From a virus, in the IMG/VR virus record IMGVR_UViG_3300001528_000116, positions 1 through 54,576 of that record: a DNA stretch of 54,576 nucleotides. One strand, written 5' to 3'. Positions 52,609 through 54,433 of this stretch are shown here, piece by piece (the first letter of the stretch is position 1; each line of letters opens with the position of its first letter). The notes under the pieces were generated by a model that did not search any database, had not been told where the DNA came from, and saw only the letters and a program-made list of their open reading frames with translations. The position numbers and the translations under genes were made by a program.

Positions 52609-52815
52609 CTATTCTTTCTCATCCGGCAAAGCAGCAAGCTCAGCCTCTAATTCGTTAATCTCAGCACGCCATTTCTCGCGCTGGGATTTCACAGGAGCAA
52701 ACTCCTCATCTGTCAGACAGCCCTCTGAATACTTCATACATTTGTAATCAGTATCAGCAAGCAATGACTTCCGGGCGTTGATTTCTCCCTGAATAAACTG
52801 TCTTTTTTCGTCCAT
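52609..52815 (-). CDS. Small hypothetical protein
   Basis: MDEKRQFIQGEINARKSLLADTDYK..., after AAAGGAGGG. Overlaps the 3' end of the RT gene by 62 nt. Confidence 0.45.
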   Translation of the reverse strand: MDEKRQFIQGEINARKSLLADTDYKCMKYSEGCLTDEEFAPVKSQREKWRAEINELEAELAALPDEKE

Positions 52816-54001
52816 TCTGAACCCTCCTTTTTGATTTTTTCTTTTTATTTTTCCATGGCTTTGTATGGAACAGGTCAAAGAAAAGTGCGTCCATACTTTT
52901 AACAGAATCATACGCATCTTTTTGTAAAATGTAGCCACGCCATGACATATAGGACTGCTCTATCTGTGGGATAGTCATTTCTCCATTGTCGTAGAAGCGC
53001 TTTAGCTTTTTGAGCTTCCGGCGCTCCCGGACTATGCTGTCATGGTCTGATTTACGGATGACCTTACCAGTAGCCGTGAGAAAATACTTAGTTTTGAGAA
53101 AAGTAAAACCGCGACTTAATTTGACAATCTGGGTTTTCTTCTCATTTGGGATAATTCCCATTTTGCGGTATTCTGCAAAGAGTGCGTCTCTTATTTGGAT
53201 AAGTGCCTCTTTGCTTTCGTGAATGATATATGAATCATCCATATATCTGTTATACGGATGTATGCGCCATTGGTCCTTAATAATGTGGTCAATCCTATTT
53301 GGATATGCGACGGCATATATCTGGCTGTCCTCTGGACCTATATACAGTCCTTTGCCTCTTTCTTCTGGAGGTTTGTCTGCATCGGTTGTAGCGATACAGC
53401 TTTTTGCAAAGAACCGTATGCGCTCATCTGTAAAGCTCTTGTCTATAATCTCAAACAATGGTTCGTGCTGTATGTTGTCAAAATATTTCTTAAAATCAAT
53501 TATGAGGATATATCCCTCATTGCTACCATGTTTACGGAAATATTGGTGCAAGTGCGTTTCGCACCTGTCAGCACTGAATTTAACGCCTTTGCCTTTAAGG
53601 CTCGCGCCATTGTCGTAAATTAAGTTGTTTGACAGTATCGGCACCAGTGAATTGATACAGGCAGATCTCCTTATAACGCGCTCAGAGTAGTGCAGGCTGT
53701 GAATGGCTCTTGCCTTACCTCGCTCTATAATGCCAAAAGAATAATATCCACTGTGGACGTTCTTACCTGCCATGAGGTCATAGTGTGCTTTTACTGCGTT
53801 TTTGTAGAAGTGCATATTGTATCTCGCGACGCTTGCTTTCCACATGACTCCTCTCCGGGAGTCGAAATTTGCTCGAATGAGAGAGTTGACATCCGCGATT
53901 CGTTCAAAGTTATCAAACTCAGCCAACTTCTCACGTCTTACCCGTTCCCTCTGTGCCTTACGGCGTTCATAACGGGCTTGATGTCTTTCCTCACTGTTCA
54001 T
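52754..54001 (-). CDS. DGR reverse transcriptase
   Basis: 415 aa with YMDD (RYMDDSYII) and the DGR-type motif-4 signature LYIGPEDSQ ([ILV]GxxxSQ). Lies 300 nt downstream of the TR. Confidence 0.9.
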   Translation of the reverse strand: MNSEERHQARYERRKAQRERVRREKLAEFDNFERIADVNSLIRANFDSRRGVMWKASVARYNMHFYKNAVKAHYDLMAGKNVHSGYYSFGIIERGKARAIHSLHYSERVIRRSACINSLVPILSNNLIYDNGASLKGKGVKFSADRCETHLHQYFRKHGSNEGYILIIDFKKYFDNIQHEPLFEIIDKSFTDERIRFFAKSCIATTDADKPPEERGKGLYIGPEDSQIYAVAYPNRIDHIIKDQWRIHPYNRYMDDSYIIHESKEALIQIRDALFAEYRKMGIIPNEKKTQIVKLSRGFTFLKTKYFLTATGKVIRKSDHDSIVRERRKLKKLKRFYDNGEMTIPQIEQSYMSWRGYILQKDAYDSVKSMDALFFDLFHTKPWKNKKKKSKRRVQNGRKKTVYSGRNQRPEVIAC

Positions 54002-54303
54002 AAAGATAAATACCTCGCGAAGTGTTATTGTAGGGGCGCGTTGTGTTCTTCTTTGCGGTAATGGTCATGCAATCGGGTACTTAGCTGGATTCCATTCAGC
54101 GTATATTATCGCCATCCCCGACCATGCAAGCAGCGTCCGGCCAACCGCGTCAAGGCATATATTTACCTACTTTCACTGTAGGACGGTTATGTCCTCCTTC
54201 CATAAAATAAAAAATTTTCAAGGGGTCTTGATTTCTGCATTATGAAAATGCCTACTTTATACTAGCCCCGTACAATAGTTGCATGGAATCAGATAACATT
54301 CAT

Positions 54304-54433
54304 GGAATCAGATGGGCGCCGCGATCCAGGTATTGGTAGTAGAGTTGTTGTTGCAATTCCCGTTGTTGTTGACATTCGCGAAATTAGTAGAATTGCCAGC
54401 ATTCGCGGAAAGCAACCACCAGTTGTAGCGGTG
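54304..54433 (-). repeat. DGR template repeat (TR)
   Basis: The coding-sense reading is Asn-codon rich: WWLLSANAGNSTNFANVNNNGNCNNNSTTNTWIAAPI. Every VR difference falls at a TR adenine. It lies in no ORF. Confidence 0.9.

Follow-up and report, generated by a model that had tools for sequence, protein, structure and literature searches.

The 54,576-nt viral sequence IMGVR_UViG_3300001528_000116 (positions 1 to 54,576 of the IMG/VR record, hereafter the window) carries on its minus strand the parts of a diversity-generating retroelement (DGR). Across the circular junction these lie in the order of target gene 1 with variable repeat 1 (VR1), a putative Avd-like accessory gene, the template repeat (TR), a spacer RNA of the Rfam RT-2 family, and the reverse transcriptase (RT), with target gene 2 and its variable repeat (VR2) located ~8 kb from the rest of the DGR. 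Bases 1–75 are identical to bases 54502–54576 over 75 bp, indicating that the contig is circular or terminally redundant, and since the Avd-like gene is cut in two by the window boundary, a linear reading misses it. The initial annotation of this sequence had placed a complete DGR core at 52754–54433. The DGR itself is confirmed, however the accessory gene and target gene 1 extend across the junction (1–1369 together with 54467–54501), and target gene 2 lies at 46542–47333. We consider it highly probable that these parts form a functional DGR belonging to a temperate phage whose host is a Gram-positive gut bacterium.

The RT is encoded by a 415-residue open reading frame (ORF; 52754..54001, minus strand), in which both of the motifs first noted in the ORF downstream of the TR, YMDD (within RYMDDS) and LYIGPEDSQ (the IGPEDSQ motif), are present, and RVT_1 is its single Pfam domain (E = 6e-16). 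The protein matches PHROG 1423, ‘reverse transcriptase’ (E = 2e-65), with its neighbours in the phage collection being RTs of Roseburia, Faecalibacterium, Bacteroides, and Bordetella phages, including the Bordetella DGR phages and Roseburia phage Shimadzu, whose gene next to the RT is annotated Avd. The best match in the PDB is the DGR RT of BPP-1 (8ub7_A, from the DGR ribonucleoprotein structure; E = 1.2e-16), compared with 6.6e-6 for the best group II RT, and BLASTP aligns the protein with Brt of BPP-1 at 27% identity over 308 residues (E = 7e-22). None of the NCBIfam models for group II, retron, DRT, and AbiA enzymes comes near its cut-off. The profile check proposed at the outset, with BPP-1 as the closest solved relative and the group II and retron models below cut-off, supports assignment of the protein as a DGR-type RT on sequence grounds. 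The ORF ends in a Lys/Arg-rich tail (KPWKNKKKKSKRRVQNGRKK..., window 52754–52815) that shares 62 nt with the following ORF (ATG at 52815), across an A-rich run. The length of the RT varies among relatives from 374 to 468 residues, with most between 385 and 430, suggesting that this tail may not be functional.

The TR (131 nt; 54304..54434, minus strand) was initially described as matching two other places in the genome, and these are VR1 (487..617, minus strand; 86.8% identity over 129 nt, E = 3e-39) and VR2 (46562..46677, minus strand; E = 1e-31), with no further copy found within the whole window. An ungapped alignment of VR1 places 17/17 mismatches at TR adenines (A>G 8, A>T 6, and A>C 3), the chance of which is ~0.27^17, or roughly 2e-10, given the 35 adenines in the 129 nt of the TR core, and in VR2 the same holds for 13/13 substitutions. 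Adenine specificity after proper alignment, a check set beforehand, is thus borne out by 30/30 substitutions. The earlier statement that every mismatch lies at a TR adenine nevertheless leaves unmentioned an in-frame 3-nt deletion in VR2, in which the TR codon TGC (Cys) is missing, and one of the 17 VR1 mismatches, the last, is a fixed difference between the repeat ends and not a product of mutagenesis. The TGC codon is retained in VR2 of four related phages (L070–L073), making the deletion private to this genome, and it could be due either to skipping by the RT in the AAT-TGC-AAC-AAC-AAC run or to a later deletion. Read in the target frame, the TR contains 13 Asn codons (7 AAC and 6 AAT) among 45, close enough to the 12 of ~25 counted previously, and the distribution of its adenines over the first, second, and third codon positions is 20/16/3. 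The same frame contains a TGA stop, so that the TR itself is non-coding. The VRs end 8 nt (target gene 1) and 20 nt (target gene 2) before the stops of their ORFs.

The 3' end of the TR, GGATCGCGGCGCCCATCTGATTCC (54327..54304), is IMH*-like, with the ends of both VRs, which share the sequence GGATCGCGGCGCCCATCTGCTTCC (510..487 in VR1 and 46585..46562 in VR2), resembling the corresponding initiation of mutagenic homing (IMH) sequence. Here the TR reads CTGATTCC where both VRs read CTGCTTCC, a difference that is fixed in 21/21 distinct related elements, so that the last TR/VR ‘adenine mismatch’ does not stem from mutagenesis. This A (TR) to C (VR) difference, which gives the VR a Cys codon where the TR frame has TGA, resembles the IMH*/IMH difference of BPP-1. 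A GC-rich hairpin, CCGCCAG-CTTG-CTGGCGG (445..462, minus strand), follows VR1 after 24 nt, and an identical hairpin, CCGCCAGCTTGCTGGCGG (46521..46538, minus strand), follows VR2 after 23 nt, with no corresponding hairpin after the TR. A GC-rich hairpin is also found after each VR in the relatives, with stem sequences differing among the 21 distinct elements. BPP-1 requires a hairpin after the VR for target recognition, and a loop consensus of GRNA has been reported for BPP-1-like phages (PMC3240598). By analogy, the hairpins downstream of VR1 and VR2 are candidates for the target-recognition hairpin, or cruciform, of this element.

Comparison with closely related genomes indicates that the DGR is apparently active. 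The RT is 97% identical in four viral contigs and 99% identical in a bacterial-genome contig (L007), and the TR of these relatives is the same except for three non-A substitutions, with one contig (L001) carrying a fourth just 3' of the TR. The VR1 sequences of these near-identical genomes, compared in three of the four viral contigs, all differ, with 29/33 variable positions being TR adenines, and VR2 likewise differs among four relatives at TR-A positions. The A-to-N variation that had been proposed as a check is visible, therefore, between near-identical assembled genomes. Furthermore, the three non-A substitutions in the TR of the relatives are also present in their VRs. The turnover of the VRs at TR adenines, together with the copying of these non-A changes, points to recent and repeated transfer from TR to VR.

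The gap separating TR from RT measures 302 nt (54303..54002), so that the ~300-nt stretch reported between them is real. Its description as a non-coding spacer is incomplete, however, as it is not anonymous but corresponds to the structured RT-2 RNA of Rfam (RF03077; 53990..54269, minus strand), which extends 12 nt into the RT ORF. The match covers model positions 1–222 of 222 with a score of 106.7 bits (E about 1e-25), compared with a gathering score of 40 bits. A scan of related loci finds RT-2 above threshold ahead of the RT gene in 11 of them, with three other distant loci below it; the RT-2-positive loci include phage Shimadzu and loci with RTs of 34–45% identity, among which L064 is marginal at 41.9 bits. 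Across 24 related loci with RTs 55–99% identical, the TR ends 270–370 nt before the RT, and the alignment of spacer DNA shows long conserved blocks at RT identities of 55–82%. Of the motifs RT-1 to RT-19 reported close to RT genes by Weinberg et al. 2017, with RT motifs lying immediately upstream of the RT gene, only RT-10 (the BPP-1 spacer) was tied to a DGR; the authors speculated that others may serve DGRs, and RT-2 was catalogued without an assigned function (PMC5737381). The RNA found here is a full-length match to RT-2 and likewise lies immediately upstream of its RT gene. RF03022, ‘Phage_DGR’, is the Rfam 15 family that the BPP-1 spacer matches, whilst RT-2 retains its generic name. The evidence for structure in the spacer is comparative throughout.

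Two segments of the spacer, which are insertions or single-stranded in the RF03077 model, are complementary to the flanks of the TR. One, AG(GA)CATAACCG (in full AGGACATAACCG; 54184..54195, minus strand), would pair with CGGTTATG(AA)CT (in full CGGTTATGAACT; 54446..54457, minus strand), located 13–24 nt upstream of the TR. This long-range duplex comprises 8 contiguous bp, two mismatches, and 2 bp in the window, and 11–13 contiguous bp in 22/26 distinct relatives, with compensatory changes including CGGTTATTTTCT/AGAAAATAACCG, GGGTCGATAGCT/AGTTATCGACCC, AAGGTTGTTCCCT/AGGGGACAACCTT, and AGGTTATACCCT/AGGGTATAACCT among many. It appears analogous to the ‘cPRT stop’ duplex of BPP-1, in which sequence upstream of the TR pairs with downstream sequence, and which averages ~13 bp and has been predicted in 207 DGRs (bioRxiv 10.1101/2023.10.23.563531).

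The other segment, AUGGAAUC (54095..54088), lies in the loop of a spacer hairpin, GCUG-AAUGGAAUC-CAGC (54084..54100, minus strand), and is complementary to the 3' end of the TR, GAUUCCAU, with which it would form a candidate template:primer duplex. Three positions extending the GAUUCC:GGAAUC core covary (A:T->G:C, T:A->A:T, and G:C->C:G), a compensatory change of CCAACGAA/TTCGTTGG to CCGGCGAA/TTCGCCGG is also seen, and in another clade the duplex reaches 10–11 bp and shows a double compensation, UCCAACGAAC/GUUCGUUGGA versus UCCGGCGAAC/GUUCGCCGGA. When partners were shuffled among loci, the observed total was reached in 0/2000 permutations for the stop-duplex analogue and 21/20000 for the loop pairing, both tests ignoring phylogeny and shared ancestry. 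The template:primer duplex of BPP-1 joins TR117–129 with Sp47–56, with priming at Sp A56 (bioRxiv 10.1101/2023.10.23.563531). The pairing between the TR 3' end and the spacer loop, for which covariation speaks in most but not all clades, is the less secure of the two proposed here.

The 3' edge of the TR was also described as carrying a tandem duplication. Two copies of the 13-mer ATCTGATTCCATG are indeed present, copy 1 at the TR end (54301..54313, minus strand) including the GAUUCCAU complementary to the loop AUGGAAUC, and copy 2 lying 6 nt downstream (54282..54294, minus strand), however the direct repeat has a period of 19 with AATGTT between the copies, and is spaced instead of strictly tandem. 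No repeat of this kind (0.0) arose in shuffled windows. Both copies can form an 8-bp pairing with the spacer loop, and in 13/20 aligned relatives the core CTGATTCC likewise occurs twice, the additional copy reading CAGATTCT in one of them. An alternative pairing of copy 2 with the invariant GCAUGG/GGGGAU blocks, evaluated with RNAduplex, was rejected, as it contains many wobbles and GGGGAU is already part of a covarying local RT-2 helix. One group of relatives (the L027 group, e.g. L027 2180–2612) keeps the RT-2 RNA and the stop-duplex analogue, in its GGGTCGATAGCT/AGTTATCGACCC form, and has neither the GGAAUC loop nor the second docking copy. The spacer loop of this group shows weak complementarity to CCGUCUG inside the TR.

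An ORF scan of the circularised sequence places the accessory gene, of 153 residues, between target gene 1 and the TR, a position conserved in relatives. Its 5' part (1..427, minus strand; ATG at 427..425) continues across the circular junction into the 3' part (54467..54501, minus strand; stop TAG at 54469..54467). An AlphaFold2 (AF2) model built with 11 homologues predicts a four-helix bundle with a predicted local distance difference test score (pLDDT) of 83.6. Its top viral fold match, in BFVD, is an ‘Avd-like protein’ (template modelling score 0.64/0.75), with the Avd of BPP-1 (bAvd) ranking third among the fold matches in the PDB, and its isoelectric point of 9.5 is equal to that of bAvd. 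Alignment of the accessory family to Shimadzu orf23 with hhalign gives a probability of 99.8% (E = 4e-30), showing clear homology, the ‘Avd’ label of orf23 being the annotation of its depositors. A profile search recovers 314 representative-cluster homologues, and of 40 homologues scanned only one touches PF05635 (8e-4). The protein is termed Avd-like on account of its position, predicted fold, charge, and the Shimadzu annotation, a putative identification whose link to Avd passes only through that annotation and the predicted fold. A terminator-like hairpin with a 10-bp stem and a T-run (54466..54491, minus strand) covers the final codons of the accessory ORF, and 3 nt separate its end from the upstream strand of the long-range duplex; it is found only in the closest relatives, namely this window, L008, and, in weaker form, L010.

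Both target genes carry their VR within a C-terminal DUF6273 domain (Pfam PF19789, cut-off 23.5 bits). Target gene 1 (296 residues; 479..1369, minus strand) follows collagen-like tail-fibre genes and scores 27.6 bits (E = 3e-6), and target gene 2 (263 residues; 46542..47333, minus strand) lies beside a serine recombinase gene and scores 38.9 bits (E = 1e-9), the two sharing 40% identity over their C-terminal 133 residues. The location of target gene 2 in a lysogeny or early region, instead of among tail genes, is unusual for a DGR target. DGR targets are expected to adopt a C-type-lectin-like fold. The AF2 model of the variable domain, made from the two window sequences only, has a pLDDT of 30.6, and no match to the target variable domain was found among PDB sequences.

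A number of observations weigh against a functional DGR that works in the manner of BPP-1. Activity is deduced from the comparison of assembled genomes, and the 3-nt deletion in VR2 would have been erased by fresh full-length homing. The long-range duplex contains an internal 2-nt mismatch in this window (8+2 bp, compared with 12–13 bp elsewhere), the terminator-like hairpin lies just upstream of it, and the hairpins after the VRs have the loop CTTG and not the GRNA consensus of BPP-1-like phages. The minimum free energy fold of 54470..53990 is no more stable than those of shuffled sequences (z = +1.0), pairing energies computed with RNAduplex for the TR 3' end and the spacer are no better than shuffled controls, and neither the L027 group nor the distant RT-2 loci L006 and L009 have the loop pairing, to which the disregard of ancestry in both permutation tests must be added. 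Searches of Pfam, NCBIfam, and PDB sequences with the accessory protein return no match, of which the absence from Pfam counts here, no Foldseek match of its model in the PDB or BFVD reaches E<=0.001, and hhalign against bAvd/PF22296, alone or as a 121-sequence profile, gives a probability of 0.1% or less. The deletion in VR2 relative to the TR, the weakening of the long-range duplex by two mismatches in this lineage, and the terminator-like hairpin just upstream of the DGR RNA would also suit a relic, whose parts are still recognisable, whose diversification has ended, and whose VR differences are ancestral. We regard this as very unlikely, as the RT ORF is intact with its catalytic motifs present, genomes with RTs 97–99% identical and nearly the same TR still differ in VR1 and VR2 almost only at TR adenines, and the new non-A TR substitutions copied into both VRs require recent transfer. 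It is scarcely credible that the locus is not a DGR at all, with a group II intron or retron-type RT lying beside diverged paralogous gene fragments. The best partial NCBIfam match of the RT is indeed a group II RT/maturase model, yet its 62 bits are far below the cut-off of 300, and among solved relatives the BPP-1 enzyme (bRT) leads by ten orders of magnitude. The DGR-type IGPEDSQ motif, the confinement of all 30 substitutions to template adenines, and the placement of the TR outside any ORF, with its in-frame stop, all speak against such an origin, as does the absence of any intron RNA family in the region, where only RT-2 was matched.

The role of the RT-2 RNA can be questioned separately from that of the element. 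RT-2 extends as far as the RT start codon and past it, was given no function by Weinberg et al. (PMC5737381), and does not show the pairing of its loop with the TR 3' end in every relative, all of which would fit a 5' leader that only regulates translation or stability of the RT, with cDNA primed otherwise, for example at a nicked target. We think this improbable, as a leader would have no need for a covarying 12–13-bp duplex with the far side of the TR, or for a loop covarying with the TR 3' flank, and both pairings have direct structural counterparts in the BPP-1 ribonucleoprotein. If RT-2 is instead part of the DGR template RNA, as we favour, a mechanism can be proposed whose steps follow the analogy to BPP-1, with the sequence features named and the VR changes described above being what is observed here. 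A single RNA would begin ~25 nt upstream of the TR, reach as far as the RT gene start, and fold on the RT/Avd-like complex, where the segment upstream of the TR would pair with the spacer block AG..CAUAACCG and mark the end of cDNA synthesis. The TR 3' end GAUUCCAU would pair with the spacer loop AUGGAAUC, placing a spacer nucleotide as primer, from which the RT would copy the TR with misincorporation opposite adenines. The cDNA would then replace VR1 or VR2, each possibly recognised through its GC-rich CTGCTTCC end and the hairpin ~24 nt downstream. More speculatively, and with low expectation that all of it holds, RT-2 might be the cis-priming and termination scaffold of a large DGR clade in phages of gut Bacillota, in which the duplicated docking sequence GAUUCCAU may offer two alternative registers, one productive and one a decoy or ‘off’ state, forming a switch that sets the frequency of diversification.

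The closest isolated relative of the element is that of Roseburia phage Shimadzu (LR596903.1, orf22–orf24), which shares the order of a DUF6273 tail-fibre target, a small ‘Avd’ gene, the TR, the RT-2 RNA, the RT, and lysis genes. Its RT is 47.6% identical and its RT-2 RNA scores 144.9 bits. Target gene 1 occupies the position of the Shimadzu DUF6273 ‘tail fibre protein’ orf22, which is longer (431 residues, compared with 296 here). Similarity at the DNA level is confined to the TR region, and Shimadzu is otherwise a different phage. The experimental prototype BPP-1 (mtd-avd-TR-Sp-brt) has the same order of target, accessory gene, TR, spacer, and RT, and shares with this DGR adenine-specific transfer from TR to VR, a GC-rich IMH/IMH* pair, a hairpin after the VR, and pairing of the spacer RNA both to the 3' end of the TR and to a segment upstream of it, as supported here by covariation. 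In contrast to BPP-1, with an RT only 27% identical to the one described here, no similarity in sequence between the accessory protein and bAvd can be detected, the spacer is a 302-nt RT-2 RNA (144 nt and Phage_DGR RF03022 in BPP-1), the hairpin lies ~24 nt from the VR with a CTTG loop, two DUF6273 targets take the place of Mtd, and the docking sequence at the TR 3' end is duplicated.

The frequent occurrence of DGRs in gut phages is already established, and the element described here is an ordinary new DGR of known layout, with modest added value. The useful result is one of annotation, in that the RT-2 RNA family can be assigned to DGRs, with the comparative evidence suggesting that the RNA architecture of BPP-1 extends to a distant clade, as its cryo-EM structure predicts. 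The coordinates given here can guide mutagenesis in the culturable relative, Roseburia phage Shimadzu. Additionally, the Avd-like family, which has no Pfam model and is missing from present domain libraries, would improve DGR finders that report such elements without an Avd.

The remainder of the window gives an indication of the phage and its host. Directly upstream of target gene 1 lies a gene for a tail-fibre-like protein (1380–2525, minus strand) with a collagen-type G-x-y run, GDTGSPGAKGDPGAPGKDGNPGEPGADG, whose match to Pfam Collagen is below the cut-off. Target gene 2 adjoins a gene for a large serine recombinase (44869–46479, plus strand) with Resolvase, Recombinase, and Zn-ribbon domains, and just beyond it lies a gene for a weak Macro-domain protein (47696–48145, minus strand; 22.0 bits, exactly at the cut-off). 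An endolysin with a glucosaminidase domain and two CW_7 repeats is encoded at 50800–51603 (minus strand). The CW_7 repeats of the endolysin and the encoded serine recombinase suggest that the host is probably a Gram-positive gut bacterium and that the phage is probably temperate. A megablast of 20 kb of the window against phage genomes found no related isolate. A relative with an RT 82% identical (L008) is a contig in a metagenome-assembled genome labelled ‘Prevotella sp.’, a label that conflicts with a Gram-positive host, and this contig was probably mis-binned.

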